Assembly (NCBI GenBank): GCA_023898425.1
Contig: CP060222.1
Span: 660,001 to 692,000, forward strand
Length of the DNA: 32,000 bases
Source of the DNA: Candidatus Saccharimonadota bacterium
GTDB lineage: Bacteria; Patescibacteriota; Patescibacteriia; 2-12-FULL-60-25
Reading direction: 5' to 3'
The notes under the pieces are model-generated. The model was not told the origin of the DNA, searched no databases, and saw only the letters and a program-made list of their open reading frames with translations. A program made the translations under genes and the position numbers. Shown here in pieces: positions 3,189 to 28,470 of the stretch. The first letter of the stretch is position 1. Each line of letters opens with the position of its first letter.

Positions 3189-3622
3189 ACGTTCATGATC
3201 CTCTCTAGGAGCTCTTCTTGCAAGCGAAACATCACCATCTCCTCATCTTCAGTAGCATGATCGTATCCCTTAAGGTGTAAAACCCCATGGATCATCAATC
3301 GAAGCAATTCTTCTCGTGCTGAGATAGCACGACGCTTGGCTTCTCTTGTGGCATAAGAAGGACAAATAACAATATCCCCTAACTCAAATTCTACGGGTGA
3401 TTGCATCGCTGGATCTGCGTTAAATGAAAGCACATCTGTAGGTTTATTTATCTTGCGATACTGCTTATTTAATGTCTGAATTCGTTTTGGCGTGACAAAA
3501 GAAAGACTCACTAAGGTTGCCTTTCGTATTTTTAATTTTTTTGATAATAATTCTGCAGCGCGCGTGATATCGCGTTCAGAAAGCACTTTTGGCAAAGCCG
3601 TAACTCGTGTGAATTGGATCAT
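3185..3622 (-). CDS. ybeY: rRNA maturation endoribonuclease YbeY
   Basis: 145 aa containing HGVLHLKGYDH, the YbeY zinc-binding H-x-x-x-H-x-x-x-x-x-H motif. ATGA overlaps occur at both ends. Confidence 0.9.
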   Translation of the reverse strand: MIQFTRVTALPKVLSERDITRAAELLSKKLKIRKATLVSLSFVTPKRIQTLNKQYRKINKPTDVLSFNADPAMQSPVEFELGDIVICPSYATREAKRRAISAREELLRLMIHGVLHLKGYDHATEDEEMVMFRLQEELLERIMNV

Positions 3623-4998
3623 GGTGATGTTGTTGTGACATTAGGAATATCGACGGTACTTGTTGTCGTGACGGTATTTTCTGTTATTGCTGTAGTGGTA
3701 GTTGTAGCACCCACAACATCACCAGGACCATTTAACAAAGATTCTTCTGGAGGGATCATTTGTACCGGTGCGCCTTCGAGCTCTAGCGAGTTCAACATCA
3801 TCTCATAAATCGTGCGGTAATTGATATACGGCTTACTATCTGGATTGTATTTGAAGATAAAGACGCGTTCTCCCCAGGTGAATACCGCCTCTAAGCGATC
3901 TGGGCTCAAAATCCCCTCTAGACCTTGCTTTGTGGTTAATGAACGCAACATATCAGCCGTTGTTGTAGGACTTTTTGTAAGATACCAATCTTTTGCCGAG
4001 AGCTGCTGTGTATTTGGTACTACCTCGATCAAAAATCTTTCTCCTTGTCCCGTAACAATACTTGCTCTCTCGCCATCCGCGATATCCATCGAGCTCGTCC
4101 AAGCGGATGGCACGATAATCGACCAACCAATCGAGCCTTTAAACGATTTTACTAAGGTTGTATCTAAAATTTTTACTGGTGCTTGTGCCGCAGGATTATA
4201 AAGATGGAATACTTCGTTACCATCTAAGAACCCATCACGATCCGTATCGGGATTACGAGGATCTGTTGAGAAGACAAGCTCCTCGCTATCAGACAAACCA
4301 TCCGAGTCAGAATCAAGTCCTCCAGGTGGCAAAGACGGCGTCACGGGTTGCGCCGAAGCTACCGTCGCTAATGCTTCTGCAGAAGCAGGAGAAGCCCCGC
4401 CTTCGTTAACAGCAGAAATACGATATCGATAACTCAAACCAGCCGAAACACTTACATCAAGAAAAGATGTGCTATTTGCAGGTAGATTCGTCAAAATAGC
4501 AAAAGCTCCATCCGCCGTAGCGCGCTCTAAACGGAAACCTGTTTCGTCATTGGTTGCATCCAACCAAGTTAAGGTAATAGCTTGTGTACCACTCACTGAT
4601 GTCGCCATGATATTTGCTGGCGTTTGTGGAGGTGACTTTACAGGAGTTTCAATAACGGGAGGCGTTGTTACAATAGGTTCTTTTTTACCAAAAAGCGCTT
4701 CGCGATTTACATAAGCAAAACCACCACCGATCAAAAGCAAAATAATCAGCGCAAGAGCAATATATGGCCAAGGCGAAGGCTTTTCTTCTGCCATAGGAAC
4801 CAAAGCCTGTTTTGGCTTTGGTGGTGGCGGTGGTGTAGCGGGAGCAGGTGTTGGTGTTGCTTCTTTGGCCTCCATTTCGCGCGCATCCATCTTTAAAGCG
4901 ACGCCGTAGTATTTCTCCGGCATCACCACGATCTCTGGGGATCGTTTTGGTGACGATGGCGCTTCTGTGGGCGCTTTTGTCGCTTCAAAGGGATTCAT
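3619..4998 (-). CDS. Single-pass membrane protein: Pro-rich N-terminus, TM helix, FN3 domain, thrombospondin-type-3-like Ca-binding repeats, unknown C-terminal domain
   Basis: 459 aa. TM helix PWPYIALALIILLLIGGGFAYV at about aa 76-97. FN3-like segment ITLTWLDATNDETGFRLERA...YRYRISAVNEGGASPAS. Acidic repeats DSDSDGLSDSEELVFSTDPRNPDTDRDGFLDGNEV at about nt 4195..4317. Confidence 0.75.
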   Translation of the reverse strand: MNPFEATKAPTEAPSSPKRSPEIVVMPEKYYGVALKMDAREMEAKEATPTPAPATPPPPPKPKQALVPMAEEKPSPWPYIALALIILLLIGGGFAYVNREALFGKKEPIVTTPPVIETPVKSPPQTPANIMATSVSGTQAITLTWLDATNDETGFRLERATADGAFAILTNLPANSTSFLDVSVSAGLSYRYRISAVNEGGASPASAEALATVASAQPVTPSLPPGGLDSDSDGLSDSEELVFSTDPRNPDTDRDGFLDGNEVFHLYNPAAQAPVKILDTTLVKSFKGSIGWSIIVPSAWTSSMDIADGERASIVTGQGERFLIEVVPNTQQLSAKDWYLTKSPTTTADMLRSLTTKQGLEGILSPDRLEAVFTWGERVFIFKYNPDSKPYINYRTIYEMMLNSLELEGAPVQMIPPEESLLNGPGDVVGATTTTTAITENTVTTTSTVDIPNVTTTSP

Positions 4999-5001
4999 AC
5001 A

Positions 5002-5940
5002 TTAGGGGTTGAGTTTTGGCACCTCACACGTTGGTGTAGCGCACTTTCCGTCTCCACGGGGATTATAACCATTCTTAACCTCGTCACCATCCGGATATGT
5101 ATCTTTATCGGTATCTCTATTTAAAGGATTGGTGCCGTAAATTTTATTTTCATCACCATCTGTTAAACCATCACCGTCAGAATCTGGATTATTTGGATCT
5201 AAGCCTAGCTCGATCTCTTGTTGATCAGATAAACCGTCCTTATCAGTATCAACAACGCTCGTTGTAGATGGTGATGGTACCACTACAGGTGTTGATGTGG
5301 ATGGTAAAGGGATATTAACGCCAGAAGGAGGGATCGTGACCGGAGGTGGTAATGTTAATCCGCCCTTTGTTGTATCAACCTCTGTATCCGTTGACGTAGT
5401 CTCATTACTCGTTGGCGTAGTTGGGATAGGTGTTACCACATTTGTTGTTGTCGCCTGTGGAACGGTGTTTACAACAGGATCTTTTAACGTTGTGTCATTA
5501 GAGTTTTTATTGATCAATGTATAGATACCAAAAGCAGCTCCACCTAGTAAAACCAAAATCAATAAAGCAAGTAGCGCGACCTTCACCATAGATGGGCCCG
5601 TTGATGACGGTACTGGCGCCATTGCAGGCATCACCGGTGTACGCACAGGAGCACGGGTTGGCGCAGAATCCGCAAACATATCTTCTGGCTCTTGTGGCTT
5701 TGAAGACATGTCTTTATCTGTCATAGCCTCCGTAGGCATAGACTGAATTTCTGGACGTTGAGCTGCAACAGGCGCAGGAGCATTAAGCGCATCAGGCAAA
5801 GGGCGCACCGGCGTTGGTGTCGGTGAGTTTGATGCTGGTCTAGGTGTTGCTACCTGAGTTGGCTCAGGTGCTGCCATGGATTCTAATGCTTCGTCCGATA
5901 CATCGTCGGGTGCAAATGGTAAATTGTTTGGCGGATTCAT
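5002..5940 (-). CDS. Single-pass membrane protein with Pro/Thr-rich regions and a C-terminal TSP3-like Ca-binding repeat tail
   Basis: 312 aa. TM helix VALLALLILVLLGGAAFGIY. The tail reads DTDKDGLSDQQEIELGLDPNNPDSDGDGLTDGDENKIYGTNPLNRDTDKDTYPDGDEVKNGYNPRGDGKC (about nt 5005..5256). Confidence 0.72.
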   Translation of the reverse strand: MNPPNNLPFAPDDVSDEALESMAAPEPTQVATPRPASNSPTPTPVRPLPDALNAPAPVAAQRPEIQSMPTEAMTDKDMSSKPQEPEDMFADSAPTRAPVRTPVMPAMAPVPSSTGPSMVKVALLALLILVLLGGAAFGIYTLINKNSNDTTLKDPVVNTVPQATTTNVVTPIPTTPTSNETTSTDTEVDTTKGGLTLPPPVTIPPSGVNIPLPSTSTPVVVPSPSTTSVVDTDKDGLSDQQEIELGLDPNNPDSDGDGLTDGDENKIYGTNPLNRDTDKDTYPDGDEVKNGYNPRGDGKCATPTCEVPKLNP

Positions 5941-5957
5941 AGGCGTTTATTCGTTGA

Positions 5958-6497
5958 TTATACAGGTTGATACAGCGCATCTCCCTCTCCTAATGGATTA
6001 TACCCGTTTTTGATTTCATCCGCATCATTGAAGCCATCACCATCGGTATCAGCCTTATTTGGATCGGTGCCGTAGCGGGCTTCTTCGGTGTCGGGGATGG
6101 AGTCGGAGTCTGAGTCAAGCGAGCTATCTATGCTATTAGATTCATCCACATTTAAATCACTGTTTACCTCTTCTAATACATCTGGCTGTGGATTTAGGGC
6201 TGCTTTTGCTAATTGTTCATTGATGGTGGTAGCAATGTTTTCTTCAGTAGCTTCTACATGACCTTCTGTATAAAACCCTTCGCTTGGCGGATTAGCTATC
6301 CTCTCCACGGACAAGACCGGTATATCATTCGTTGAGGTTGCTTTATTTGTGCCAGATATGACATCAGATACCGTAACCGACACTCCTTCATCGGCTATCT
6401 CTCTATTTCTAAGCCAATAGATACCCGTCAACAATAATGAAATTCCTGTAACCACTGTTAAGATAAAAACGTTTTTTTTGTTGATTGTATTGATCAT
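5958..6497 (-). CDS. Signal-anchored small protein with a C-terminal TSP3-like Ca-binding repeat tail
   Basis: 179 aa. N-terminal hydrophobic anchor VFILTVVTGISLLLTGIYWL. The tail DSDSDSIPDTEEARYGTDPNKADTDGDGFNDADEIKNGYNPLGEGD shares its EVKNGYNP/EIKNGYNP ending with the 312-aa neighbour. Confidence 0.68.
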   Translation of the reverse strand: MINTINKKNVFILTVVTGISLLLTGIYWLRNREIADEGVSVTVSDVISGTNKATSTNDIPVLSVERIANPPSEGFYTEGHVEATEENIATTINEQLAKAALNPQPDVLEEVNSDLNVDESNSIDSSLDSDSDSIPDTEEARYGTDPNKADTDGDGFNDADEIKNGYNPLGEGDALYQPV

Positions 6498-6503: not shown

Positions 6504-7631
6504 TTATCTTGCATCCCTGAAATTTAGGTACGTCACTCCAGAATCCTCTCCAGTGACCCGGCATTGAGAATTGATAAGCTTGTTCTGTATTGTTATATCC
6601 CCTGTTTTTTCGTTCTGTGAAAAGACATGCCACGCATGAACGTCCGTAGACGTACCTATACCACACGATGTCTTTGACGCAATATCTTTATAATTTAGAG
6701 TATACATATTTTGCGATGTGATCACACGAACACGTAGCCCTAACAATCCTGCATAGGTTTCAGGGTAACGCAATCTGAACGTCCCATCATTATACTCAGT
6801 CTTATAAGTGAAATCTACGATATATTGATAGTTGCCCGTGCCTGTATTCCAGCTAGGGTCTCTACGATAGGCGTCTGTACGTGGGAAAGAATTAGATATT
6901 CCAAATGGATAATTACAGTGTAAATTTATATTTGAATTATCATTTGGAGACGCATTATCTGGTAACACATATCTACCTGGACTTACCTTATCTTTTTGTG
7001 ACCAAGGCGTATAACAAGCCAGATAGGCATGTGGCCAATGCCCTAGATCTATATTCATATCTCCTCTATAAAAATCACGGAAACAATCAATATTGTCTTG
7101 ATTATTTTGCGATGTCCAATTACATGGGTGACTTGGCTCAAACTTGTAAGGACTAGCTGATAAGCGAGTACCATAAGCTACGTCATTACCATCACGATGC
7201 CCCATACTTGGTGGCAAGTACAACCTATTTGTAAAGTATTGGGTTAGATGCTCATTACCACTAGTCTCAGTACCATCAAGAATAACGTAGGTTTCGTTTT
7301 GAGCTACTTTTGGCGCAAGATATAACTTTGCAATCTCCGATCTACTATTGAACGAAAATTGATTTGATTCATATGGCCAGTAACCTCCATTAGCTCCCTC
7401 ATCTGGTTCTGGGATATTTTTGAATGGTTCATCTGGGCTTATTGCTGGATCATAATCTGTAAATTTAACAGGGTTTGTCCCAGGGATAGGCATTCTGTAT
7501 GGGCTATTGTTTACTGTGTATTTCAATACACCCCAAGGCTGTCCATCACATCCATTAAAAGGTCTTCCGGTTTTGACCCCGTACAAATATTGTCTTTGTA
7601 ATAATCGACCACGATTTTGTAGCTTGAACAT
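6504..7631 (-). CDS. Hypothetical Asn/Tyr/Trp/Cys-rich protein with no recognisable family; start uncertain (ATG 7631 or ATG 7493)
   Basis: 375-aa ORF. The first 109 nt overlap the giant gene in another frame. Starting at M47 (7491..7493) removes the overlap. No signal peptide from either start. Six Cys lie after M47. The region is visibly more AT-rich than its neighbours. Confidence 0.6.
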   Translation of the reverse strand: MFKLQNRGRLLQRQYLYGVKTGRPFNGCDGQPWGVLKYTVNNSPYRMPIPGTNPVKFTDYDPAISPDEPFKNIPEPDEGANGGYWPYESNQFSFNSRSEIAKLYLAPKVAQNETYVILDGTETSGNEHLTQYFTNRLYLPPSMGHRDGNDVAYGTRLSASPYKFEPSHPCNWTSQNNQDNIDCFRDFYRGDMNIDLGHWPHAYLACYTPWSQKDKVSPGRYVLPDNASPNDNSNINLHCNYPFGISNSFPRTDAYRRDPSWNTGTGNYQYIVDFTYKTEYNDGTFRLRYPETYAGLLGLRVRVITSQNMYTLNYKDIASKTSCGIGTSTDVHAWHVFSQNEKTGDITIQNKLINSQCRVTGEDSGVTYLNFRDAR

Positions 7632-10600
7632 GCGGGATTTTTCAGAATGTTTTCAAATCTATATTTGCCATCTTTATCTGCTATCACATCCTTAACACGA
7701 AGCCCACGGCTAAAGAGTGTAACGCGTGCTCCAGGTATAGGGTAATATCGATACAACGCATCAAGCACCTGACCTTCAATCACACCGTCTCCAATTGCAT
7801 CCGAACATTTAGCACAACCAGAATACTGACACGTATTGTTACAAGTAATTTCATCACGTCCACTCACCTGACGATTCGCAAAGTCATACCCAAGCGCCTT
7901 ACAGCTTACATTTGGATCAATAGCAACACCTGCTTCACATTGCTCTGGGCTATTTTCATCAACACGTCCATTGCCACAGTACCCACCTGACTGCGCTACT
8001 TGCTGACAAGAAGTCGTACAGGCGAGACACGTTGAACCATAGTCGGCACCATCTGGACATGCGCCACCGTTTTGTGAGCCGAGATCACATTGCTCAACGC
8101 CTGCGTTAATTTTTCCGTCACCACAAATATTCTTTTTACACGAATTTGTATACGTGTCGGTATCGCTACGATTACCGTCATCGCATTCTTCGCCTTGGTC
8201 GACGTTACCGTCTCCACAAGAGCCGACTGGTTTACAGCCAGACCAGTCAGCAAATTGACACTGATTCTGCAAGCCTGGAGACGTACAAACACGCATATTT
8301 TGTGTTTCGTACTCTGCGCAAGTACCGCCTACAGAGGCACAATCGCTATTTGTATTACACGAAACAAAGTTATTCTCTGGAGTTTTAACGGTACAATATT
8401 TCACAGGAGAACAGCCTTCTTTTGTTGTTTCGACATTACCATCGCACTTCTCATACGGAGCGTCGACTTTATTATCACCACAAAATGGCGCAACACCCTG
8501 ACATGATTGAGAACAGGTTAATGCCGCATTACAACCCGGGCCACAATACTCACCATTACGATTACCCAAATCGCAGAGCTCACCCGGTGCTAATTTGTTG
8601 TCACCACAGTAACTATCATAGCCTGTACAGGTACGATTACAGCGACCATAGGTACCATTAAGCGCACTTCCGTCATCACAAACTTCGAGAGTAGGTAGTT
8701 CTGTACATGTGATATTCGAACCTACCGGATCACCCGGTGACTGACATTCGGCTGCATTGCCTGCGTTAGTACATGCTTGACCATACTTTAACCCCTCACC
8801 ACCAAGACACTGTGCACGGTCAATACGACCATTGCCACACATGCTTTGTGCAACACAGGTAGCATTTGATGAATCAACAAAGCCTTTACAATCGTTACAG
8901 ACTTGTAGTTTTGTCCCTGCTGCACCGGAGGCTGTAGAACAAGAAGCGCCACGCGTATCCCCTACTTCACAGACTTCGTTTGTACCGATAACACCATTAC
9001 CACAAACATCGTCTTGGCCGTACTCGGTACCTTGGCAAATACCGCTGTACTTCCAAGTGCCACCAACCGTGAGACATTGACCCGTAGAAACTTGAGCGCC
9101 CGTTGGGCTTGTAACGGTACAATTCGCATCAACAGAACAAGGGCTATCGATATTTGTACAACGCTTAGCTTCTGTTTGTAGTGATGGCACATAACGTGAG
9201 GCATCTGCTGCTTCGAGCTCTGTTCCGAGTTCGAATCGACGGCCACCATCTACGGCACGATATTGATAAATACGTGATACCGATGCTTGTGGTGACGAGG
9301 TATTCAAAACAGGACACATATATCTCTTTGAGATTGTGTTCCAACACGTTGTCGCCTCGAGGCCTGTTTGATTTGCAGGTACATTACAAGTTTGACCAGT
9401 ACCACAATCTGAATCGGTCATACACGCTGATTGTGACGTAGAACAGAATCCACAAGACAAGAAGCGATTTACAGGATCCGTAGCACCGTTATCACCAAAG
9501 ACGGTTTGCCAGCTCGGCCAACGACTCGTCGACATACCCTGAATAAAGCTACCACTATCAAGCGTTGGATAGGTGCCGTTTTGCTCTTTTGTAAGCTCAA
9601 GATTATTACTCATGCGAGAAATATCGGCGATACGCTTAAGATCACGCTGTAACTTAGGCTTAAAGCTCGCACAACGTAGATTGGTATTCTTTTGTAAACA
9701 CTCCCAATCTGCCGTACAAGTGACGCGAGCACCGTTTTCACGATAGGTTTCGCTTACCGAATGACCTGGTTCAGCGATGGCATATTCACAAGCATTTTGA
9801 ACATCATCTTGAAGATTTGCGTTTAAGAAGAAGTTTGCAACAAGCTGATCAAAAATACCTTGCGTGATCTTACTTGCATCGGGGTTACGTGAAATGATGT
9901 AGATATTTGGATAAACGTCGCCATTAGCAAGATCGTTTGTATTTGCTGCCGAAACATAAACAGTAGCTCCATCTTTGAGTGCCTCGTAACCATCGACCGT
10001 TGCTGACTGCGGTGAACCCGAGAACCCTTTTGATGCAAACCAATCACGTATATTTAAGTGCAGTGGATTAGACATCACACGAATACCGATACCATCCCCT
10101 GCTAATTCTGGTGAGCTAGCTGTATCAAAACTAAGAAGATATTGACGTAATACACCTTGTGCACGATCAGCATTTGATAGCTCCACATGAACAGCATTCA
10201 TCGAAGGTAGATCATCTGCTGTGAGATCAAGACTCTCTCCATCGCGACAATACATCGTAGAGAAGTTAAAGAATGTTGGGCCATTAGCTATTTCAGGAGC
10301 ATAATGAGCAAGAGCATCAGAGTTTTCTACATCAGCAAATGCACCCAGATTACGTGCTGGCCATGGATTTTCACAAAGAAGAGCTGTACTCAATAATGCT
10401 CCTCGAATAATTTGATTTGTTGACGAAGGTGTTGTGACGGCATCGTTTGTAATACGTAACTCAGCTGAAATATACGAGCTTCCCATCTTGTCTTTTGAAG
10501 AAACATCTGCCTGTGTGCCACCGACCTGATTTCCGGCGATACCAGCAACAGAGAATACCGGCTCTTCAGAAGAGCTCCATGGCTGCCACTCCCAATTATA

Positions 10601-13600
10601 TTCTGTAACAGGTGACAAGAGCGAAGCGGACCCTGCCTGAACCGAAACAACTTGAGCATTGTACCGATGGGTCTCGTTTACTTTTGTAAAGGTAGCTGGT
10701 GAATCAACGTTTGTATCCGAAACACGAATATCCGATATCGTACAAATGCTTGCACCTGTAGTAAATGGCCAGAATTGTGATCCTGACATTACAACACCGC
10801 GCTTAGACATAATGCCCGTTTTACCATCTGGGTTATCCGTAAGATTTACGTCGCCACGTACCAATACACCGTATTGTGTATTCGCTTTTAATGCCGAAGA
10901 GATATACAAGTATGCCGTCGTTTGACCATTTGATTCTGTTGTAGAAATCGTTCCTTTTACACTGCCTGCACAATACACATCCGCTTGAGCTGGCTTTACA
11001 AAGAACGCGGTTACCCAGTTTTTGATTTTTGCAAACCAACCTTGCGGAGAAGCTTGTACGATAGTGACATCCTCAAGACCAGCAGGACACGCAGTACCTG
11101 AATGTACTTCAGTAATAATCAAATGATTCGTAATAGACTGCTCATCCATTAGCGTATTGAACTTAAGAGTGAAAGCTGTATTGCGACATACACCCGTTGC
11201 GCCTGAAGCTGGTGTCGCCGAGACAATATCCGGACGTGGCGCACAGCAACCCGATTGATCAAGGCCAGTCCCACTAGGACAAGACAGCTCCGTCGTATAA
11301 CCACATTTTAACCCATAGACCGCTGAACCTGTTTTTTGTGTGACGGTTGCGTTTAGCACCGAGCTCATAAGTCCGCTTGCATCTGGGTTGGCTTCGCCTA
11401 CGATTTCAGCTAGCTGAATGGCATCTGGGCTTGTACCAGCACCTGCACTTTCACACATAATGGATTCACCGATACCTGTGACACCATCACCACAGAAAGA
11501 AGGGTTGATATAGGATGCAGACGAACCCTCTAAGAGACAACTACTCGAACAGCCGTCACCTGCTACTGAATTTCCGTCATCGCAGGTTTCGCCTGCAGTA
11601 AGATCTGTATTACCGTTGCCACAACAAGCACCGATACTGGTACTGGTACATGCTTGCGTACCCGTCTTGAGACAGGTGTTTGCATCACAGCCTGCGATAG
11701 GCCATACACCGCCGATTTTTTCACAGGTCTCACCGGCTTCTTGAATACCATTGCCACAAAGCGCAACAACCGCTGTTGATCCTTCGTTGGTACAAATACT
11801 GCTACAGCCGTCACCGCTACGCGTATTACCGTCATCACAAGACTCCCCGTCAGCAATGTCTCCATTACCACAAGTAGAACCACCTTCGTTTGCTCCCAAT
11901 ACCTGACAATCTGCTGAACAGCCCGGTGTACCATTTGGACCTGGGTCACATTGCTCCCCACGATCAATAGTTCCATTACCACATTGTGCGCTCGCTGAAG
12001 GCTTCCAAAGACACTGCGAAGAACAGGTTGCTGTTTCTGAACCTTCGTCACACTCTTCGCCACCTATAGCATCTGCAGACAAGATGACACAATTATCTCC
12101 AAAAATCGTACGCCCATTAATACAGTAGGCGGCATTTTTTGTTTCGACGATACGGTTTCCGCAAGAAGCCGTTTTTCCTGCGACACCTGTAGCACCGGTT
12201 TGGATACAACGGTCTGTACAACCTGCTGCACGATTTTTTGATGTACTCACCAAGCCTGTAGAAGGAGCGTTTCCGTTACCACCATTAATAAAGCGACTTA
12301 CGTCACCGCTTTGATCAATAGACCAATTGTAAGACTGGTTATTTGAGAGGATCTGTCCTTTTTGTGAACAGCTATCAGGAGCGGATTTTGTGCTTGCCGC
12401 AAACAATTGTCGTTGACCAACAACTGTTTCGATCTTTTTCATCGGCGAAACATCAACAGCCGCAATACCGCACATCGTGTCATCTGAGTCTTTTACACGG
12501 AAGGTCCATGTATATCCCTCAGGGCTATTTAAGTCGGTAAGGAGTAAGCCATCAACCGATCGCACACCCTGCAAAGTACCACCACGAACCGTAACTTTAT
12601 AGAACTTACCACGTTGAAGCAGTGTATTGCCTTGGTTATCCAACATGTCTAGCTTTGCAAAACGTAGCTTTGGATCATTTGAGCCAGGTACCGCCGAAAG
12701 CGTTGCCGAAGGTAATTGACTTGGCATCCAAATTTGATCAAAGGTGCGGCAATTTTCATTGGTACAACGACGTACTTCAAAGGCATTTGCTACAGAAGCG
12801 GCATTCATTGGCACACTGAACTCAGCCCATACGGCAGCATTGCTACAGGCGCTGTCACAACCCGGACCATAATTAACTATTGTTGGAGGCTGTGGACGAA
12901 TATAGAGATCGGCTGTATCAAGATAATCTTCACCACCAAGTACGATAGCAAGCTCAACTTTGACAGGGTCATTACCCGTATCAGCAAGACCTGTTGCAAC
13001 TTGATCAAGAGACTGTGTTTGGCCATCAATAGTATTTGTGATAGATGCACGACCATCTGAAGTAGACCATTGTGCTGTATACGTAAGACCATTCCAGTTC
13101 ATCACGATACAAGCATCCTCTCTTGGATAACCAATAACGGTATAGTCACGTGTTTCATTTAAGGTGCTCATCTCTGCTGTATTTGGCAATACATCAATAC
13201 TTCCTAAGAGACAAACATCCGCTTCGTTACGTGTTTTAAACGTAAAACAGTATGCATTACCAGCGCCACACTCGGTATTTTCTGCCATTGGAATACCTGT
13301 TGAGGACAAGATGCCTGTAGTAAGAACAACTTGATAGGTTGATTGTTCGATCCAAGTACCACCAACAACCTGTGCTTGAATATATCCTTCGTCACCATTA
13401 GTACCTACTCGTGGGTAGTTTGGGGCAAAATCAACCAACTCTTTTGTGACACAAGCGTCAGCACCTGATCCTGTACAACGATAAAGCTGAATGGTACGGG
13501 ATGAGCCGGTCCCTACAATGCTTGTCTCATCTAGATGAGTATTAAAGCGCAAATACACGTCACTATTTACACAAACATTATTTCCGCCTTGATGGTTACT

Positions 13601-16201
13601 CCATGGCGAAGGTGATGGAGGTTTATTTTGGCTACATTCTTCGATAACCAAAGGATTAACCGGGATAATACCCGTAGAAACCGTCCAAGCAAATTGAGCC
13701 GATGTAACAGCAGCCGCACAGACACCACCAACCGAACAAGCACCTGAAGCACAACATTGTTCGCTTGCACCACAAATACCGGCATTTTCTTGACAGCTTT
13801 GCACGGCAAAAGGCACCGCATTTGAGTTTACGGCATTGACGGCTACCGACACATTGCCCGTTCGTGAACCCGCTGGCACAAAAGACGAAACCGTCTGACT
13901 CGTCCAATCCCCGCTTTCAACTGTTGCATCAACGCGCGCGGTGCCTGTACCCGTAAAGGTAAGTTGACCAGCATTTGAAAAATTCTCACCAACGACGTCG
14001 ATAGGTGTTCCAACAGGACCTGATGCTGGGCGAATCGCACAAATACCAGGAGTAGGCGTACCACTCTCAACCACAAAGCTCGCCGCCGAAGATGCGACAG
14101 CATCAGAACGCTCAAGAACAACAGTATAAGGCCCAGGAGCAACTGCTTCGTTTCCAATACCCGCACTGACATTTGCAGGAACCTTAACGGTGACCGCTGT
14201 ATTTGACCAAAAGCCTGTACCACAAGCTGCTGGAAAATTTGTATCTGCAATACCCGTTGCACCATCAGCACGTTTAAAGGTTACCTTACCTACCGTATTA
14301 CCAAAGTCCGTACCTTGAAGGGTAATATATTGCCCGATAGCACCACGATCCGGCGTAATACTATTAATTTTTGGCGCTGATGCAGCTGTTCTCGTATCGA
14401 TTCTAAAGGCTCGTTGATTTGAAGAGATATTGTTTGATACGACAGAAACCGGATAGTTTGCCGGAGTATAAACAGGGGTATTTAAAATAATCGATGTGTC
14501 GGACCATGTTTGCACGGTTGATGCTTCGCGATCAGCAAAAAAGACTTTTCCGGCTGTTGCACCAAAGCCAATACCACGAATCTCGATACGATCACCACTA
14601 AAACCTGAGTCTGGTGAAATCTGACATATCGCAGGATGAGCAACATCATTAACAACAAAAGGCTCTAAAACAGGACCGTTTGTATCAATTGAAGAATCCG
14701 TAAGATTATTTGTTGCATGTTGCACATCAAGTCCACCCGTCTCAGCGCCAGCAGGTACCTCTACAAGAATTGAATTACTCGTCCACGTTGCAACACCGCT
14801 TGCAAGACAAGCCTGCGCCGGTTGCGCCACGACACCATTCGTAAAGCGAACGGTTCCAGGCGAATTACCAAATCCACGACCCGTAATTGACACGACGGTT
14901 CCTGGGCGACCATCTAGAGGTGAGATACCTGTAATGAGCGGCGCATCGACACAGATATTATTCACACAAGCGCCCGAAGAACAATCGCTATTACCAGTAC
15001 AACTAGTGCCTGAGCAAGCGCCGCAAGATCCTCCACAATCAATCGCCGTTTCATCACCATTCAATAAACCATCAGCACAGTAAGCAGGACGAACGGTAAT
15101 TGTTATTGAATTTGAATTGGTAAAGTTTGAATCTAAATCAAAGACTTTTACAGAGAGCGTGTGGCTTCCTGGTGTTAAAATCGTTGAGTCAATCTGACCA
15201 GAAAGCGTCGTAACCCCATTATCAGTGCCAGAAATAACGGCATTACCTCTCGTGCTGCCGTCTAAAAGAATTTCTGCCATTGAGATACCCGAATCATCGG
15301 TTGCTGTAGCAGATACAGAAACCGAGTCGCCCTGCACAAAAATCGCTCCGTTTAATGGTGTGACAAGACTAACGCTTGGCGCTTGTGTATCCACAAGATC
15401 ACCTGTTTCAAAATCCGCTGTACATGCTGGTGCAAAACCGCCACATGTAATCGCGAGTCCTGATACTGAACGCGTACCGCTTCCAACACGAATGGTAAAA
15501 CCTGTATTTGCCTCTAAACATTTACGATCTTCGTTTGGTGCTGGACATGTTGCCGTAGGGACAAAGGTTGCTACCGAACCGATAAGCAACCACTCACCTT
15601 CGACAGCTGATTGATCCGATGTTTTAACAACCTGAATATCAGCATTCGTCGCATCTACTTCGCGAGAAAAAACGATACGAGGCTCAACATTACGCAAAGG
15701 CACTGAACCCGTAGGTGTTATGCTTTGAACTTGAAAAGATTGGCTTGAGCCTCCCCCACCTAAGCCACCACCGGAGCCAGAACCACCAGAGCCGCCACTA
15801 CCACCATTATTCCCATTGGTAGCAGACAATAACGTACTAATAACAAAAGCCGTGATCCCCCATGCTGACAAAATAATCACTAAACCGATAACGGCATTGG
15901 TAAGGGTTCGTTTTGCTTTTGCGATTTTTTCTGCATCTCCTCCAGAAGTCATCCATGTAAAACCCGCATACAAAATAATCAAAACAAGAATGATTCCGAT
16001 AATTCCGAGTGTTGCATTGATAATACGCACGATAATGGTGCGCGGATCTGTTCCTGATAGGTTTACCGTTTGACCCACTTCGTTGAGGCCAAGCGTGTCT
16101 TGTGTTTGCGCAAGAACTGATGGCGCATAAACAGCAAGAGCCATCATGACGATGATGGCGGCAAGTGGGGCGATCCAGCCCAATAAACGTTTGTTTTTCA
16201 T
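7523..16201 (-). CDS. Giant (2892 aa) surface protein: signal peptide, VirB2/TrbC-like pilin hairpin, Gly/Ser linker, Ig-like domains, 4x IPT/TIG, SbsA/Big_5-like Ig domains, two arrays of CGNG...CDDGN...GDGC Cys-rich repeats, and a C-terminal carboxypeptidase-regulatory-like beta domain
   Basis: Uninterrupted 8679-nt ORF with ATG at 16199..16201 and TGA at 7523..7525. The N-terminus MKNKRLLGWIAPLAAIIVMMALAVYAPSVLA|QT is followed by two TM helices around LYAGFTWMTSGGDAEKIAKAK. The domain motifs are read directly from the translation. Confidence 0.92.
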   Translation of the reverse strand: MKNKRLLGWIAPLAAIIVMMALAVYAPSVLAQTQDTLGLNEVGQTVNLSGTDPRTIIVRIINATLGIIGIILVLIILYAGFTWMTSGGDAEKIAKAKRTLTNAVIGLVIILSAWGITAFVISTLLSATNGNNGGSGGSGGSGSGGGLGGGGSSQSFQVQSITPTGSVPLRNVEPRIVFSREVDATNADIQVVKTSDQSAVEGEWLLIGSVATFVPTATCPAPNEDRKCLEANTGFTIRVGSGTRSVSGLAITCGGFAPACTADFETGDLVDTQAPSVSLVTPLNGAIFVQGDSVSVSATATDDSGISMAEILLDGSTRGNAVISGTDNGVTTLSGQIDSTILTPGSHTLSVKVFDLDSNFTNSNSITITVRPAYCADGLLNGDETAIDCGGSCGACSGTSCTGNSDCSSGACVNNICVDAPLITGISPLDGRPGTVVSITGRGFGNSPGTVRFTNGVVAQPAQACLASGVATWTSNSILVEVPAGAETGGLDVQHATNNLTDSSIDTNGPVLEPFVVNDVAHPAICQISPDSGFSGDRIEIRGIGFGATAGKVFFADREASTVQTWSDTSIILNTPVYTPANYPVSVVSNNISSNQRAFRIDTRTAASAPKINSITPDRGAIGQYITLQGTDFGNTVGKVTFKRADGATGIADTNFPAACGTGFWSNTAVTVKVPANVSAGIGNEAVAPGPYTVVLERSDAVASSAASFVVESGTPTPGICAIRPASGPVGTPIDVVGENFSNAGQLTFTGTGTARVDATVESGDWTSQTVSSFVPAGSRTGNVSVAVNAVNSNAVPFAVQSCQENAGICGASEQCCASGACSVGGVCAAAVTSAQFAWTVSTGIIPVNPLVIEECSQNKPPSPSPWSNHQGGNNVCVNSDVYLRFNTHLDETSIVGTGSSRTIQLYRCTGSGADACVTKELVDFAPNYPRVGTNGDEGYIQAQVVGGTWIEQSTYQVVLTTGILSSTGIPMAENTECGAGNAYCFTFKTRNEADVCLLGSIDVLPNTAEMSTLNETRDYTVIGYPREDACIVMNWNGLTYTAQWSTSDGRASITNTIDGQTQSLDQVATGLADTGNDPVKVELAIVLGGEDYLDTADLYIRPQPPTIVNYGPGCDSACSNAAVWAEFSVPMNAASVANAFEVRRCTNENCRTFDQIWMPSQLPSATLSAVPGSNDPKLRFAKLDMLDNQGNTLLQRGKFYKVTVRGGTLQGVRSVDGLLLTDLNSPEGYTWTFRVKDSDDTMCGIAAVDVSPMKKIETVVGQRQLFAASTKSAPDSCSQKGQILSNNQSYNWSIDQSGDVSRFINGGNGNAPSTGLVSTSKNRAAGCTDRCIQTGATGVAGKTASCGNRIVETKNAAYCINGRTIFGDNCVILSADAIGGEECDEGSETATCSSQCLWKPSASAQCGNGTIDRGEQCDPGPNGTPGCSADCQVLGANEGGSTCGNGDIADGESCDDGNTRSGDGCSSICTNEGSTAVVALCGNGIQEAGETCEKIGGVWPIAGCDANTCLKTGTQACTSTSIGACCGNGNTDLTAGETCDDGNSVAGDGCSSSCLLEGSSASYINPSFCGDGVTGIGESIMCESAGAGTSPDAIQLAEIVGEANPDASGLMSSVLNATVTQKTGSAVYGLKCGYTTELSCPSGTGLDQSGCCAPRPDIVSATPASGATGVCRNTAFTLKFNTLMDEQSITNHLIITEVHSGTACPAGLEDVTIVQASPQGWFAKIKNWVTAFFVKPAQADVYCAGSVKGTISTTESNGQTTAYLYISSALKANTQYGVLVRGDVNLTDNPDGKTGIMSKRGVVMSGSQFWPFTTGASICTISDIRVSDTNVDSPATFTKVNETHRYNAQVVSVQAGSASLLSPVTEYNWEWQPWSSSEEPVFSVAGIAGNQVGGTQADVSSKDKMGSSYISAELRITNDAVTTPSSTNQIIRGALLSTALLCENPWPARNLGAFADVENSDALAHYAPEIANGPTFFNFSTMYCRDGESLDLTADDLPSMNAVHVELSNADRAQGVLRQYLLSFDTASSPELAGDGIGIRVMSNPLHLNIRDWFASKGFSGSPQSATVDGYEALKDGATVYVSAANTNDLANGDVYPNIYIISRNPDASKITQGIFDQLVANFFLNANLQDDVQNACEYAIAEPGHSVSETYRENGARVTCTADWECLQKNTNLRCASFKPKLQRDLKRIADISRMSNNLELTKEQNGTYPTLDSGSFIQGMSTSRWPSWQTVFGDNGATDPVNRFLSCGFCSTSQSACMTDSDCGTGQTCNVPANQTGLEATTCWNTISKRYMCPVLNTSSPQASVSRIYQYRAVDGGRRFELGTELEAADASRYVPSLQTEAKRCTNIDSPCSVDANCTVTSPTGAQVSTGQCLTVGGTWKYSGICQGTEYGQDDVCGNGVIGTNEVCEVGDTRGASCSTASGAAGTKLQVCNDCKGFVDSSNATCVAQSMCGNGRIDRAQCLGGEGLKYGQACTNAGNAAECQSPGDPVGSNITCTELPTLEVCDDGSALNGTYGRCNRTCTGYDSYCGDNKLAPGELCDLGNRNGEYCGPGCNAALTCSQSCQGVAPFCGDNKVDAPYEKCDGNVETTKEGCSPVKYCTVKTPENNFVSCNTNSDCASVGGTCAEYETQNMRVCTSPGLQNQCQFADWSGCKPVGSCGDGNVDQGEECDDGNRSDTDTYTNSCKKNICGDGKINAGVEQCDLGSQNGGACPDGADYGSTCLACTTSCQQVAQSGGYCGNGRVDENSPEQCEAGVAIDPNVSCKALGYDFANRQVSGRDEITCNNTCQYSGCAKCSDAIGDGVIEGQVLDALYRYYPIPGARVTLFSRGLRVKDVIADKDGKYRFENILKNPACSSYKIVVDYYKDNICTGSKPEDLLMDVMDSLGVY
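7799..9013 (-). repeat. Cys-rich repeat array 2 (degenerate CGNG/CGDN/CGDG...C(D/E)...C units) inside the giant gene
   Basis: Repeat units seen: CGNGVIGTNEVCEVGD, CGNGRIDRAQC, CDDGSALNGTYGRCNRTC, CGDNKLAPGELCDLGNRNGEYCGPGC, CGDNKVDAPYEKCDG, CGDGNVDQGEECDDGNRSD, CGDGKINAGVEQCDLGSQNGG and CGNGRVDENSPEQCE. Confidence 0.65.
11442..12063 (-). repeat. Cys-rich repeat array 1 (Myxococcus-type cysteine-rich repeat pattern) inside the giant gene
   Basis: Repeat units seen: CGNGTIDRGEQCDPGPNGTPGCSADC, CGNGDIADGESCDDGNTRSGDGCSSIC, CGNGIQEAGETCE..., CGNGNTDLTAGETCDDGNSVAGDGCSSSC and CGDGVTGIGE. Confidence 0.7.
13798..14941 (-). repeat. Four tandem IPT/TIG-like Ig domains (protein-level repeats) inside the giant gene
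   Basis: The four repeats start at PLITGISPLDGRPGTVVSITGRGFG, PAICQISPDSGFSGDRIEIRGIGFG, PKINSITPDRGAIGQYITLQGTDFG and PGICAIRPASGPVGTPIDVVGENF. Confidence 0.75.
15743..16201 (-). other. N-terminal module of the giant protein: signal peptide, pilin-like two-TM hairpin (aa 33-126) and Gly/Ser linker (aa 127-153)
   Basis: The segment TDPRTIIVRIINATLGIIGIILVLIILYAGFTWMTSGGDAEKIAKAKRTLTNAVIGLVIILSAWGITAFVISTLL is followed by NGNNGGSGGSGGSGSGGGLGGGGSS. Confidence 0.7.
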
Positions 16202-16207
16202 GTGAAA

Positions 16208-18145
16208 TTACGGAAGTCTTATAGGAGCAACACATCCACCCGCTTGTGGACGACCATTACAGCAATTAGGATTTTGCGTATTTGCAGCACAGCTCACGGA
16301 TGCGGCTGGTACATAACAATTTTGATACAGATTCTGAATGCCAGAATTAAGCACCGGTTGATAAATCGGCACAATTGCTGTAGCGCCTGTACCAGTAGCC
16401 GCAACAAAGAGACGATGATCGATCGTAATCTTACCAAGCGATGTTGTGTCACCAACGCCTGCTACAGAACCTGCGGATGTAAGCGGTTGATAGGATGCCG
16501 ACCACCAAAAAGTATCCGCCATACGTGCTGGCTCATTTGTCTGCAGAACAACTTCGTCACTATTGACCGTTGATGCACGTAAAGGCGTATCAAACGTCGC
16601 ATCAATCATTGCATCAACTGAAAGATTACTCGAAGCACCAGCATCACCGGCGCGTGGATTTGTTGAGCGAATAACCGGAGCATCTAAGTTTGGTCTGTCC
16701 GTCGTCTGAAATGTCCAACCGTAGTCATCATTACCTGCTACAGCATCGCTATCAGAACCTTGGGCTTGATTATCGCCATTACCATCTAAAGAATTGCTCG
16801 CAAGATCTACAATACCATCATACAGAGAACCTGATACGGCAGCTGTTGGTGGATTATCACTCAAGGTTGCTGCTTTTGCGACCACAGCAATAGCCGTGCT
16901 CGCAGGCAAACAATAGATTGTTGAACCACAAGAATTTGTGCCACAGCTTTGATCGGTGACAAATTCTAAGGTTCGGTATTGATTTGATAATTTAAATGAG
17001 CCATTAGGACGCGTTGTCCCGCCAGCCGTCACCTGAACATTGGTAAATCCTGAACCATTTTGAAACATTCCTGATGCAGAAACAGGATCAACCGCTTCGC
17101 TAAACTGCATTTGCACAATCACGTTTGGCGCATAGGAGCCGCCGTCAGTAGGAATAACCGAAGTTACACGTGGAGGCGTATTATCGATGATGGTCGATAC
17201 TTGAAATTGCCATTTATATCCTGCGCTAAAACTCCCTCCGAATGCAGCTGAATTATCTTCTCGACGCAAACCGTTTAATCCTCCAACAAACTCAACCGTA
17301 TAATCCGTGTCTACGGTTGGGCTACCGAGATATTGCACGGGACGAATCACAAAGGTCTGACGATCGTCGGTAAAACTTACACGCGCCTCGGTTGTGGATA
17401 AAGCCTGATCACGTTTACCGGATGGATATACTTTTACAATGTCCGCATTTAAGCCGATGGTTGTCGTGCGACCAGCATCATCAGCAAGATTTGAAGGTGT
17501 CCCATTGTCGTCATAACCAGCAATCATGGTTGAAAGCTTGATTGGTTCTTTGAAGGTGATAACGATGGCTGTATTACGCGCAATACCGGTTGCATCACGA
17601 GCCGGAATATGAGACTCGACGATCCCTGCACCGAGCGCACCGGCAGAACCAGGAAATCCACCATTATTACCAAACGGGTCACCTGTACCGGATCCGCCGC
17701 CAAGACCACCATCGCCCGCTAAAAGCCCGATAACAAATGCGGTGATCGCAAAAGAAGAAACGATGATAATTAACCCAATAATACCGTTACGAATCCAGAG
17801 TTTTGCTTTTTCGATTTGTTCATTATTGCCACCCGCCGTCATCCACAACCAACCTGCATAGATGATAATAACGAGCAATACGATACCCATGAAACCCAAA
17901 AAGATATTGATGATACGACCAATAATCGTAGGAAGATCCGTTTGCGTTTCTAAACCGGTGGCAGCACCAACTTCGGTGAGACCTGGGTCAACGGTTTGTG
18001 CAAAGACGGCGGATGGGGCGGCAAAAAAAGCGACGCAAAAAAACACCGCAATCACGACAGCGAAAATACTCGCCATCCGTGATCGTGCGGTGCTTCTTAC
18101 GGAACCATCCGAAAGCATGGGAAGGAGGGATCCAAACATGTACAC
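16208..18145 (-). CDS. 645-aa surface protein: signal peptide, VirB2/TrbC-like pilin hairpin, Gly-rich linker, three SbsA/Big_5-like Ig domains, Cys-rich C-terminus
   Basis: The ORF-track start at 18145 is GTG, and an ATG lies at 18137..18139. Signal-like stretch ASIFAVVIAVFFCVAFFAAPSAVFA|QT. The hairpin PTIIGRIINIFLGFMGIVLLVIIIYAGWLWMTAGGNNEQIEKAKLWIRNGIIGLIIIVSSFAITAFVIGLL is paralogous to the giant gene's N-terminus. Big_5-like starts include PPRVTSVIPTDGGSYAPNVIVQMQFSEAVD. Confidence 0.88.
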   Translation of the reverse strand: MYMFGSLLPMLSDGSVRSTARSRMASIFAVVIAVFFCVAFFAAPSAVFAQTVDPGLTEVGAATGLETQTDLPTIIGRIINIFLGFMGIVLLVIIIYAGWLWMTAGGNNEQIEKAKLWIRNGIIGLIIIVSSFAITAFVIGLLAGDGGLGGGSGTGDPFGNNGGFPGSAGALGAGIVESHIPARDATGIARNTAIVITFKEPIKLSTMIAGYDDNGTPSNLADDAGRTTTIGLNADIVKVYPSGKRDQALSTTEARVSFTDDRQTFVIRPVQYLGSPTVDTDYTVEFVGGLNGLRREDNSAAFGGSFSAGYKWQFQVSTIIDNTPPRVTSVIPTDGGSYAPNVIVQMQFSEAVDPVSASGMFQNGSGFTNVQVTAGGTTRPNGSFKLSNQYRTLEFVTDQSCGTNSCGSTIYCLPASTAIAVVAKAATLSDNPPTAAVSGSLYDGIVDLASNSLDGNGDNQAQGSDSDAVAGNDDYGWTFQTTDRPNLDAPVIRSTNPRAGDAGASSNLSVDAMIDATFDTPLRASTVNSDEVVLQTNEPARMADTFWWSASYQPLTSAGSVAGVGDTTSLGKITIDHRLFVAATGTGATAIVPIYQPVLNSGIQNLYQNCYVPAASVSCAANTQNPNCCNGRPQAGGCVAPIRLP

Positions 18146-18148: not shown

Positions 18149-18586
18149 TTACTCCGAAAGCAGTCTCTGGACAATGGCTCTGACAGTGTTTCCGTCGGCC
18201 TTTCCATCCACAGCCTTCATTGCCGCTCCCATGGCCTTACCCATATCACTTGCCTGCATACCTGCAACAGCTTCTTTCACGATTTTTTCTACTTCTTCTA
18301 CCGGCATTGCTGGGGGTAAATAGGCAGAAAGGATATCGATTTCTTGCTGTTGTTTTTCTACAAGGTCTTGGCGTCCTGCGGTCTGAAAATCTGAGATCGC
18401 GTCTTGATATTGCTTGATCATGGTTTTCAAAACAGCAAAGGCGCTTTGATCATCGAGATCTTTTTGCATTTCTATTTGTTTGTTTTTTAACGAAGTGCGA
18501 GCCATGCGTAGCACCGAAAGGCGCTGTTCGCTTTTTGCCTTCATGGCTTCTTTTAAGTCTTGGTCAATACGTTCGATGACGGTCAT
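18149..18586 (-). CDS. yqeY: GatB/YqeY-domain protein
   Basis: MTVIERIDQDLKEAMKAKSEQRLSVLRMARTSLKNKQIE...GKAMGAAMKAVDGKADGNTVRAIVQRLL matches the YqeY-like family pattern. The ORF-track start at 18616 is a TTG; the ATG at 18584..18586 gives the usual N-terminus. It lies downstream of rpsU, as in Firmicutes. Confidence 0.85.
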   Translation of the reverse strand: MTVIERIDQDLKEAMKAKSEQRLSVLRMARTSLKNKQIEMQKDLDDQSAFAVLKTMIKQYQDAISDFQTAGRQDLVEKQQQEIDILSAYLPPAMPVEEVEKIVKEAVAGMQASDMGKAMGAAMKAVDGKADGNTVRAIVQRLLSE

Positions 18587-18616
18587 AGTATGAACTACTT
18601 TAACGGATAAGAACAA

Positions 18617-20502: not shown

Positions 20503-21111
20503 TTATTTGTCTAATTCGTAATCAAATGAAGTGAAGTGTTTCCAGCGATCAAACGGAAATCCGCGTAGCCAGACTCGACCAACGACATAGCTTTTATTTA
20601 CTGGTCCAAAGAAACGAGAGTCTAAACTTGATGAACGATTATCTCCAAGGACATAATACTCATCCATTTTTAACGTTACGGTTTGTGAATTTGCCGTGAA
20701 GTCTTGATCGAGGTAGCTTGTTTCGTTTATAAGCATCCCGTTAGGATGTTTATCATTGTAGATCTTAATCTTACCATTTGAGATTTCTACCGTTTCACCT
20801 GGCAAACCGATAATGCGTTTAATGAAAAATTCTTTCGTATTGTTTGGATACTTGAATACCACGACATCACCACGCGCAGGCGTATGCAATCGATAGGAGA
20901 GTTCATCGATGATCAAGTATTCATGATCAAAGAAATTTGGCTCCATGCTAGCACCCTGAACGTAAAAAGGCTGGATGAGAAAAAAACGAATCGGAATAAT
21001 AAGCGCTAAAGAAATGGCCAATACTTGAACAACTTCAAGGATAACTCCTAGCGGAGATGATGATGCCTCGCTTACCGAGTCATCCGTCTTTTTGCGAAAT
21101 AGTGTAAACAT
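20503..21111 (-). CDS. lepB: Signal peptidase I (S26 family)
   Basis: 202 aa with an N-terminal TM helix. The catalytic Ser box is GASMEPNF, the Lys box is FIKRIIGLPGE, and GDNRSSSLDSRFFGPV is also present. Confidence 0.9.
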   Translation of the reverse strand: MFTLFRKKTDDSVSEASSSPLGVILEVVQVLAISLALIIPIRFFLIQPFYVQGASMEPNFFDHEYLIIDELSYRLHTPARGDVVVFKYPNNTKEFFIKRIIGLPGETVEISNGKIKIYNDKHPNGMLINETSYLDQDFTANSQTVTLKMDEYYVLGDNRSSSLDSRFFGPVNKSYVVGRVWLRGFPFDRWKHFTSFDYELDK

Positions 21112-23171: not shown

Positions 23172-23187
23172 CCGAGGTGTTTTTTTA
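23154..23187. terminator. Bidirectional intrinsic terminator shared by eno (minus) and the small plus ORF
   Basis: A 9-bp stem ACACCTCGG/CCGAGGTGT (23158..23166 and 23172..23180) has a 5-nt loop. It is flanked by A5 upstream and T7 downstream, so a U-run follows the hairpin on either strand. Confidence 0.75.
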
Positions 23188-28411: not shown

Positions 28412-28470
28412 ATCTGCTACAAGGATAACATACAAACATCTCCCCTCGAACCCCCTACCCCCAACAAACG

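Follow-up and report, generated by a model that had tools for sequence, protein, structure and literature searches.

The window analysed here, a stretch of 32,000 nucleotides (positions 660,001 to 692,000 of contig CP060222.1, numbered below from its first letter), contains two adjacent genes, A and B. Their products share an N-terminal hairpin of the T4SS_pilin family (PF18895; T4SS stands for type IV secretion system), and continue, after a glycine-rich linker, into very large ectodomains. Our preferred explanation, to which we give a probability of about one half, sees in A and B surface adhesins or fibrils that are exposed on the outside of the cell and anchored to it by a genuine VirB2-like hairpin. 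VirB2-family pilins are textbook small, cargo-free subunits. The hairpin family and the pilin arrays of Patescibacteria are already known, and automatic pipelines label some A orthologues 'pilin'; in the literature searched, we found no description of a VirB2-like module fused to very large ectodomains, of a fixed A-B cassette in Uhrbacteria-type genomes, or of the wider range of cargo-bearing and multi-hairpin forms presented below.

Two adjacent pilin-headed genes

Both genes lie on the minus strand, with 6 nucleotides between the stop codon of A and the ATG of B. Their parts are the following, where a slash in a peptide motif marks the predicted cut, TM1 and TM2 are the two transmembrane (TM) helices of the hairpin, and Ig stands for immunoglobulin.

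16208..18118, minus strand: gene A, pilin-Ig fusion, 636 amino acids (aa) from the ATG at 18118
17999..18118, minus strand: signal peptide of A, with a positively charged n-region (MLSDGSVRSTARSR), predicted cleavage VFA/QT; first hydrophobic span
17717..17944, minus strand: pilin hairpin (T4SS_pilin) of A: TM1, short K-rich loop, TM2; residues ~45-120 in the numbering of the 622-aa form
17639..17716, minus strand: Gly-rich linker of A, residues ~121-146; Gly-rich in 77 orthologues
16211..17638, minus strand: ectodomain of A, an Ig-like (Big_5) chain followed by a conserved Cys-rich C-terminus (Pfam, AlphaFold2, Foldseek)
6504..16201, minus strand: gene B, giant pilin fusion, 3232 aa once a 1-nucleotide deletion is repaired
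16109..16201, minus strand: signal peptide of B, residues 1-31, predicted cleavage VLA/QT
15827..16048, minus strand: pilin hairpin (T4SS_pilin) of B, residues ~52-125, from profile scores
15743..15826, minus strand: Gly/Ser-rich linker of B, residues 126-153; Gly-rich in 70 orthologues
7571..15742, minus strand: main part of the ectodomain of B: Big_5, Big_7, four TIG/IPT domains, Cys-rich DUF4215/myxo_disulf repeats and unannotated globular regions
7569..7571, minus strand: site of the 1-nucleotide deletion, a CC run in the window where sister contigs have CCC

The start of A can be placed at the ATG at 18118, at a second ATG at 18076 (622 aa), or at the GTG at 18145 given by the tool that lists open reading frames (ORFs), which yields 645 aa. 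Either ATG is likelier than the GTG. Database gene calls use the first: P0032, of 636 aa, is 100% identical to A.

As it stands in the window, B is split into a frame of 2892 aa (7523..16201) and an out-of-frame ORF at 6504..7631. Two sister contigs, L002 and L003, which have an identical FtsA and are 99.6-99.8% identical to the window, both call B at 3232 aa. The origin of the split is a base missing near position 7570, where the window reads AAAACCGG and both sister contigs read AAAACCCGG. With this base restored, a single ORF of 3232 aa runs to 6504, and the ORF at 6504..7631 is seen to be the C-terminus of B; the database representative of B (P0240) also has 3232 aa. The window contains further indels with respect to the sister contigs, of 1 nucleotide (5985) and of 3 nucleotides (6227-6230), in the gene with thrombospondin type-3 (TSP3) repeats downstream of B, and its enolase gene is broken as well. 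We thus read the frameshift in B as an assembly or sequencing error rather than as biology. Consequently, the cargo of B is about 3080 aa, and not the 2740 aa of the preliminary description, which had been made on the unrepaired sequence; for A, where about 470 aa were given there, the cargo is about 480 aa.

The shared N-terminal module

A BLASTP comparison aligns the N-termini of A and B over 150 aa, with 44% identity and 59% positives (E=8e-28), and yields no other significant alignment; the hairpin of some 90 aa, at about half identity, that had been noticed by eye in both proteins is therefore real. Hydropathy gives three hydrophobic spans in each protein, the signal peptide, TM1 and TM2, and the order of elements is the same in both: signal peptide, TM1, a short Lys/Arg-rich loop (AEKIAKAKRT or NEQIEKAK), TM2, and a Gly-rich stretch of about 26-28 residues. 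The peptide strings quoted in the preliminary description are correct, and so is its Gly-rich linker of 25-30 residues, which is conserved in orthologues: in the 30 aa that follow TM2, the mean Gly fraction is 0.45 for B (n=70) and 0.37 for A (n=77). Its signal peptides are also found, with an end that reads V-x-A/QT instead of the announced A-x-A/QT; residues A26 and Q27 are conserved in at least 90% of 117 A orthologues. AlphaFold2 models the module as helix-loop-helix, with a predicted local distance difference test score (pLDDT) of up to 95. The helices span residues 48-80 and 85-119 in A (pLDDT around 90), and 53-84 and 90-132 in B; the linker of A is disordered in the model, with pLDDT below 50 at residues 123-138.

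The family T4SS_pilin, which the preliminary description had named, is recovered by the profile. Against a model of 71 positions, with a gathering threshold of 26.6 bits, A scores 30.6 bits (model positions 2-68) and B 45.4 bits (positions 6-70), or 53.2 bits when its N-terminus is taken in isolation. A second model, NF045849 of NCBIfam (Mbov_0395 pilin-like conjugal transfer protein), has a cut-off of 40 bits: B is above it with 41.5 bits, and A just under with 36.9. NCBIfam gives this model the type equivalog, with a protein of 80 residues from integrative and conjugative elements (ICEs) as its subject, and full-length equivalence of A or B to that protein clearly fails. The Mbov_0395 family of Mycoplasma ICEs is among the closest known systems: both lineages are monoderm, as expected for systems of the MPF-FATA type (PMC12102498), but the Mycoplasma protein is small, 80 model positions, and lies on a mobile element, whereas the module of A and B heads giant chromosomal proteins.

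With the classical TrbC/VirB2 family (PF04956), which the preliminary description had found similar, the alignment covers nearly the full model (positions 11-95 of 98), but the scores do not reach the gathering threshold of 27.9 bits: 10.5 bits for A, 22.2 for the whole of B, and 27.3 for its isolated N-terminus. PF04956 is matched at E<0.01 by 14 of 30 family members (best, 8.8e-8), while all 30 match PF18895. The relation is thus remote and near threshold, and not one of membership. With VirB2 of Agrobacterium, TrbC of RP4 and TraA of F, A and B share the signal peptide, the pair of hydrophobic helices and the short, basic character of the loop. They fall below the PF04956 cut-off, however, and have no HMMER match to solved pilins, nor any among the 50 Foldseek matches listed; and where classical pilins have 70-120 aa, carry no cargo, and lie in T4SS operons of diderm bacteria, A has 622-636 aa and B 3232 aa.

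When the first 134 residues of B are used as a query, they retrieve 31 relatives, nearly all of them stand-alone PF18895 pilins of 119-167 aa. A joint alignment of 30 sequences, fused and stand-alone, A and B included, has 7 invariant columns (G80, W83, M84, A96, G106, L107 and I109 in the numbering of B), and 8 others conserved at 90% or more. Fused and free forms have in common the motif YAGFxWMTAGG(N/D)xEK..AK....AVIGLVIIL, and hairpin positions conserved at 90% or more are also found across 117 A orthologues whose identity ranges from 36 to 87%. Since these invariant and near-invariant columns are common to fused and stand-alone members, the module is not a generic membrane anchor devoid of conserved motif, an outcome that the preliminary description had named as one that would go against it. 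The stand-alone pilins stop 10-20 residues past TM2, at the very point where A and B pass into their Gly linker.

The ectodomains

Pfam finds Big_5 (PF13205) in three stretches of A (E=1e-15). The AlphaFold2 model of A, computed from an alignment of 117 sequences, has an all-beta body, with a mean pLDDT of 89.7 and a predicted TM-score (pTM) of 0.77. Foldseek against the PDB ranks the S-layer protein SbsC first (4uic, E=3e-9), followed by bacterial Ig-like domains of L,D-transpeptidases, and then by cadherins and titin; the E-values of SbsC, the transpeptidase domains and the cadherins range from 3e-9 to 1e-5. The TM-scores are low, about 0.15, so that the likeness is limited to domain type and chain-like build. 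Cysteines near the C-terminus of A are invariant across the orthologue alignment.

The ectodomain of B is rich in cysteine (4.5%). Compared with PDB sequences, full-length B matches only the TIG-like E-domains of cyclodextrin glucanotransferases. The Pfam scan of its C-terminal 392 aa gives no significant match, and the homologue search with its central globular region (residues ~1880-2320) returns only unannotated fragments, with no functional clue.

Elongated chains of extracellular Ig-like domains on a monoderm envelope are also found in PrgB of pCF10 and in SbsC. The manner of attachment is different: PrgB is anchored to the wall by LPXTG, SbsC binds a secondary cell-wall polymer, and neither has the pilin hairpin of A and B. 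The resemblance of A to an S-layer protein is in favour of a rival view, in which the hairpin would be a transient export device or pro-region, cut off after TM2, at a conserved junction like L-x-A/T-G, by signal peptidase or some other protease. The Ig-rich ectodomain would then be freed as an S-layer-like coat or a secreted protein, leaving behind a pilin of normal size. A small-residue motif, [EQGN]-A-T-G, does stand directly after TM2 in the orthologues of both genes, and likewise in stand-alone pilins; a signal peptidase I gene is conserved 3-4 genes upstream; and the IncP pilin TrbC undergoes C-terminal processing, which offers an analogy. However, TM2 is long, about 25-30 residues, which usually disfavours cleavage by signal peptidase, the peptidase gene probably encodes the housekeeping enzyme of the cell, and a Gly tether makes most sense if the ectodomain is still attached. 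We consider cleavage of this kind rather improbable.

Distribution and synteny of the A-B cassette

With full-length A as the query, at least 304 homologues are found. Among the 120 listed, all but two have about 570-670 aa, and nearly all carry PF18895 together with PF13205; some are annotated 'pilin' or 'Ig-like domain-containing protein' in metagenome-assembled genomes (MAGs) of Candidatus Uhrbacteria or Patescibacteria. A scan of one genome per GTDB species detects a relative of A in no fewer than 577 species-level genomes, most of which bear the label Uhrbacteria or Patescibacteria. Nearly all of the best 80 loci have an A-like ORF with another pilin-headed ORF directly after it; where the contig allows a complete ORF in the position of B, it is a giant of about 3100-3630 aa. 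The order signal peptidase I, hisS, small ORF, yqeY, A, B, TSP3-repeat protein is kept even in genomes where the identity of A falls to 45-54%. What the data show for the cassette is its homology, its architecture, its conservation and its synteny.

Could the fusions nevertheless be artefacts, in which assembly or gene calling merged a small pilin gene with the gene of a surface protein downstream? The window does contain indel errors, and an apparent stand-alone pilin, P0001 (131 aa, 79% identical to the N-terminus of B), had to be rejected as such: its locus holds a B orthologue broken by frameshifts, of which P0001 is one piece. But the errors that we see split genes, they do not fuse them; and the same continuous architecture is seen in 117 full-length A orthologues and across at least 577 species-level genomes. 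Since it recurs across independent assemblies, an artefactual fusion can be set aside as practically excluded. The broken B orthologue behind P0001, at positions 9995-11933 of L001 (GCA_046350895.1), lies in many fragments; a frameshift splits even its pilin module, and the spurious P0001 entered the protein database in this way.

The hairpins of A and B form largely separate orthologous groups: the nearest neighbour is of the same type for 69 of 76 A hairpins, and for 57 of 70 B hairpins. At the same time, the A and B hairpins of one genome are more alike than those of different genomes, with mean identities of 0.52 and 0.47 respectively; in 5000 permutations the observed value was never reached (loci L007-L086). 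This within-genome likeness may reflect co-evolution, gene conversion or shared composition.

In some Uhrbacteria-type genomes, A and B are separated by a small stand-alone pilin gene of about 120-135 aa, which is complete and encodes a signal peptide of its own, so that the cassette becomes an array of three pilin genes.

L053 11821-12258, L055 11713-12120, L060 7065-7439, L045 8735-9247, L061 11637-12155: interleaved small pilin genes

Many of the MAG records that carry this Uhrbacteria-type cassette are titled 'uncultured Gammaproteobacteria bacterium' (L010, L013, L018, L020-L024 and others); these titles are probably placeholders or errors.

Pilin arrays, multi-hairpin proteins and the link to secretion systems

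The closest stand-alone relatives of B, P0003 (56% identity) and P0004 (51%), both come from tandem PF18895 arrays. The array of L088 is an unbroken run of six genes; that of L087 has about nine, among which a few other genes are scattered. The hairpin of B is thus nearer to array pilins (56%) than to the hairpin of A (44-48%). In both of these contigs, which are unrelated, a gene for a solute-binding protein (SBP_bac_1) lies inside or beside the array (L087 5753-7126, L088 3681-5060), which raises the question whether PF18895 hairpins may associate with transport or binding proteins.

Such 'VirB2 arrays' have been described in 383 Patescibacteria assemblies, and the array of Southlakia epibionticum is essential (PMC12102498, PMC10633639, PMC12857230). 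The type IV secretion systems of Patescibacteria may elaborate pili (PMC10633639, PMC12857230), and in cultures of Patescibacteria T4SS pilins, which rank with the most strongly expressed of the genes whose function is unknown, have been read as host-adhesion proteins (PMC10936435). The survey of PMC12102498 accepts as VirB2 any PF18895 match with more than 50% coverage of the hidden Markov model (HMM), and stresses small size; fusions are unmentioned. A and B resemble the VirB2-like arrays of Patescibacteria, such as the one in the T4SS locus of Southlakia epibionticum (Wang et al. 2023, PMC10633639; Quinonero-Coronel et al. 2025, PMC12102498), in hairpin family, signal peptide, motif and phylum, and also in being adjacent, divergent genes: the reported identity of array pilins is 25% on average and 54% at most (PMC10633639, PMC12102498), that of A and B is 44%. 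They differ by the C-terminal ectodomains of about 480 and 3080 aa, and by their housekeeping neighbourhood, where no T4SS gene is within reach.

An exhaustive profile search finds 84,361 cluster representatives of the PF18895 module at E<=1e-3. Among the best 150 matches, a sample biased to A and B orthologues since the search profile included them, 32 proteins have a single module, and 11 of these 32 have a C-terminal extension of more than 150 aa, with Big_5, TIG, LVIVD or Big_7 as cargo; P0233, with two modules, carries PKD domains. In this sample, the hairpin is always N-terminal and the cargo always C-terminal. A further 115 of the 150 have 2-13 tandem hairpins in one polypeptide (P0152-P0298, for example P0153, P0156 and P0162), an arrangement that is unremarked in the literature searched. 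We considered whether these 'poly-pilins' result from stop-codon read-through of pilin arrays; this is disfavoured by units of about 100 aa without internal signal peptides, as in P0153, and the sequences look like real polyproteins.

Proposed roles: anchored adhesins or minor pilins

The topology, surface display and adhesive role that we infer for A and B can be put together as follows. The two would be co-oriented, probably co-transcribed, Sec-exported surface proteins of a monoderm Patescibacteria cell (Uhrbacteria-type, class ABY1). Once the signal peptide is cleaved, the PF18895 hairpin would cross the cytoplasmic membrane twice, so that its two ends are outside and the short Lys/Arg-rich loop faces the cytoplasm, a topology suggested by the positive-inside rule, applied to this loop, and by the known topology of VirB2. 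If both ends are indeed outside, TM2 would thread the C-terminal cargo outward. The Gly tether, presumably flexible and about 28 residues long, would hold the Ig-like chain away from the membrane: some 480 aa in A, and in B some 3080 aa of Ig, TIG and Cys-rich repeats. The ectodomains could then serve contact with hosts, particles or neighbouring cells, while the hairpins probably interact laterally with stand-alone pilins or with the same machinery. Since the hairpin belongs to the pilin family proper, under clear constraint on its sequence, and is no generic anchor, A and B would be specialised members of a pilin array. Display outside the cell is further supported by the extracellular character of the Ig, TIG and Cys-rich domains, by the modelled Ig chain of A, and by other PF18895 hairpins that carry extracellular cargo (PKD, LVIVD, TIG). 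In favour of this explanation we also count the wide conservation of the cassette, the array relatives of B, the small pilins found between A and B, the strong expression of T4SS pilins in culture (PMC10936435), and the failure of surveys of Patescibacteria T4SS to detect a PrgB-type adhesin (PMC12102498).

The same design, with an N-terminal module for polymerisation or anchoring and an adhesive module turned outward, is known from modular type IV pilins such as PilB and PilC of Streptococcus sanguinis, which have an extra C-terminal functional module. Type IV pilins form an unrelated superfamily, however, with a class III signal peptide, a single N-terminal helix and a different assembly machine, and the cargo of A and B reaches about 3000 aa.

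Several observations weigh against anchored adhesins of a pilin kind. As the preliminary description had remarked, the 32-kb window has no T4SS gene; nor is there one in the 10 kb that sister contig L002 adds on the ftsA/ftsZ side, or among the genes annotated by Pfam in the cassette loci L001, L005 and L006. Of the three cassette-bearing Uhrbacteria genomes in Table S1 of PMC12102498, two are scored positive for VirB4, and the third, a draft MAG, negative. Foldseek of the hairpin model against the PDB gives non-specific helical hairpins, the best with E=1.2, and no conjugative pilin among the 50 matches listed; a HMMER profile of the module has no match at E<=10 among all PDB chain sequences. 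We regard the structure comparison of the hairpin as uninformative rather than negative, since two-helix hairpins carry too little signal. Finally, the cytoplasmic loop is strongly conserved, a hint that the hairpin may do more than anchor passively. Taken with the constraint on the hairpin as a whole, with its nearness to array pilins and with the small pilins interleaved in some genomes, this suggests that more than an anchor is at work.

The leading rival reading takes A and B for modular pilins, minor subunits or tip subunits, whose hairpins a T4SS of the VirB4 type would pull out of the membrane and co-polymerise with stand-alone VirB2-like pilins; in that case the outer surface of the pilus would carry covalent Ig-like adhesin arms. 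In the solved structures of the F-pilus and the T-pilus (TraA and VirB2), both pilin termini face outward, so that such an incorporation is topologically possible. The hairpins of A and B keep every invariant residue of the stand-alone pilins, those of the loop motif included. The closeness of the B hairpin to array pilins, the small pilin genes interleaved in some cassettes, the cargo that always follows the hairpin, the greater likeness of A and B hairpins within a genome, and the presence of VirB4 in two of three genomes all fit this idea, as do the essential arrays of Southlakia and the pili that Patescibacteria systems may elaborate (PMC10633639, PMC12857230). Moreover, no separate adhesin is known for the T4SS of Patescibacteria: an adhesin of the PrgB type was not detected in the survey of PMC12102498. 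On the other hand, a filament in which every subunit bore 50 kDa of cargo, let alone about 320 kDa, is sterically implausible, and A and B could only be rare subunits of low stoichiometry. In addition, the cassette is never beside T4SS genes in the loci examined, one cassette genome is scored as lacking VirB4, and a pilus made of PF18895 proteins is, in the literature searched, yet to be visualised. All in all, incorporation into a pilus is possible but doubtful, and we favour anchored adhesins.

A bolder conjecture, which we offer more tentatively still, is that the T4SS-type pili (VirB2 family) built by Patescibacteria include subunits with giant Ig-like adhesin arms covalently attached. The A-B cassette might then be the host-recognition end of an essential T4SS, and the multi-hairpin polyproteins might be pre-linked segments of the filament. 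If this is true, the role of the adhesin would be written into the pilin gene itself, where other type IV secretion systems delegate it to VirB5 or PrgB.

Type IV secretion systems of the Gram-positive kind were thought to lack VirB2-family pilins. According to recent work, pilin arrays are essential for epibiotic growth of Patescibacteria, yet no adhesin of these systems is on record (PMC12102498; PMC12857230). The A-B pair is a concrete candidate for the means by which tiny host-dependent cells make contact, and for the missing adhesin of the T4SS/pilin system of Patescibacteria; it also lends itself to deciding between two roles of the PF18895 hairpin, subunit of a filament or anchor in the membrane. 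The architecture is abundant: many fusions and polyproteins with several hairpins are found in the family, which has 84,361 cluster representatives. Its interpretation thus bears on the annotation of a large slice of the surface proteomes of 'microbial dark matter', in which genes of this sort go under no more than 'pilin' or 'Ig-like domain-containing protein' at present.

Gene neighbourhood and other observations

The window is a run of minus-strand housekeeping genes (ftsA, dgkA, ybeY, hisS, lepB, miaA, eno, pgk, gap, tsf, rpsB, prfA, rpmE), with a GC content of about 45%, and is typical of a small Patescibacteria genome. The neighbours of the cassette are the following.

18149..18616, minus strand: yqeY-like gene, adjoining gene A upstream; conserved synteny partner
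20503..21111, minus strand: signal peptidase I (S26), conserved in every syntenic locus examined, 3-4 genes upstream of the cassette
5958..6497 and 5002..5940, minus strand: TSP3-repeat protein genes downstream of B, from domain annotation
3619..4998, minus strand: protein with fn3 and a TM helix, downstream of B, from domain annotation

IncP pilins are processed by TraF-type homologues of signal peptidase. The signal peptidase I at 20503..21111 probably removes the signal peptides of A and B, a link drawn by inference only, and it may simply be a housekeeping enzyme. A promoter and terminator scan gives counts that are at or below the shuffled expectation; the best promoter-like site, a weak hint only, lies upstream of yqeY, at 19001-18973.

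Several membrane-anchored proteins of the window, one of them with fn3, carry calcium-binding TSP3_bac repeats (3619-6497 and 27488-28435). A TSP3-repeat gene directly follows B in distant genomes too, which suggests that the region around B is a conserved surface-protein island. About 8 kb upstream of the cassette of L005, at positions 1-2186 (GCA_963851785.1), there is a second giant gene, of 3289 aa, with no Pfam match on record.

The broken enolase gene lies at ~23150-24447, on the minus strand. Its frame is left and re-entered near 23600-23660, in a short double frameshift; the original frame contains two in-frame stops, and the gene is called as a fragment of 262 aa.

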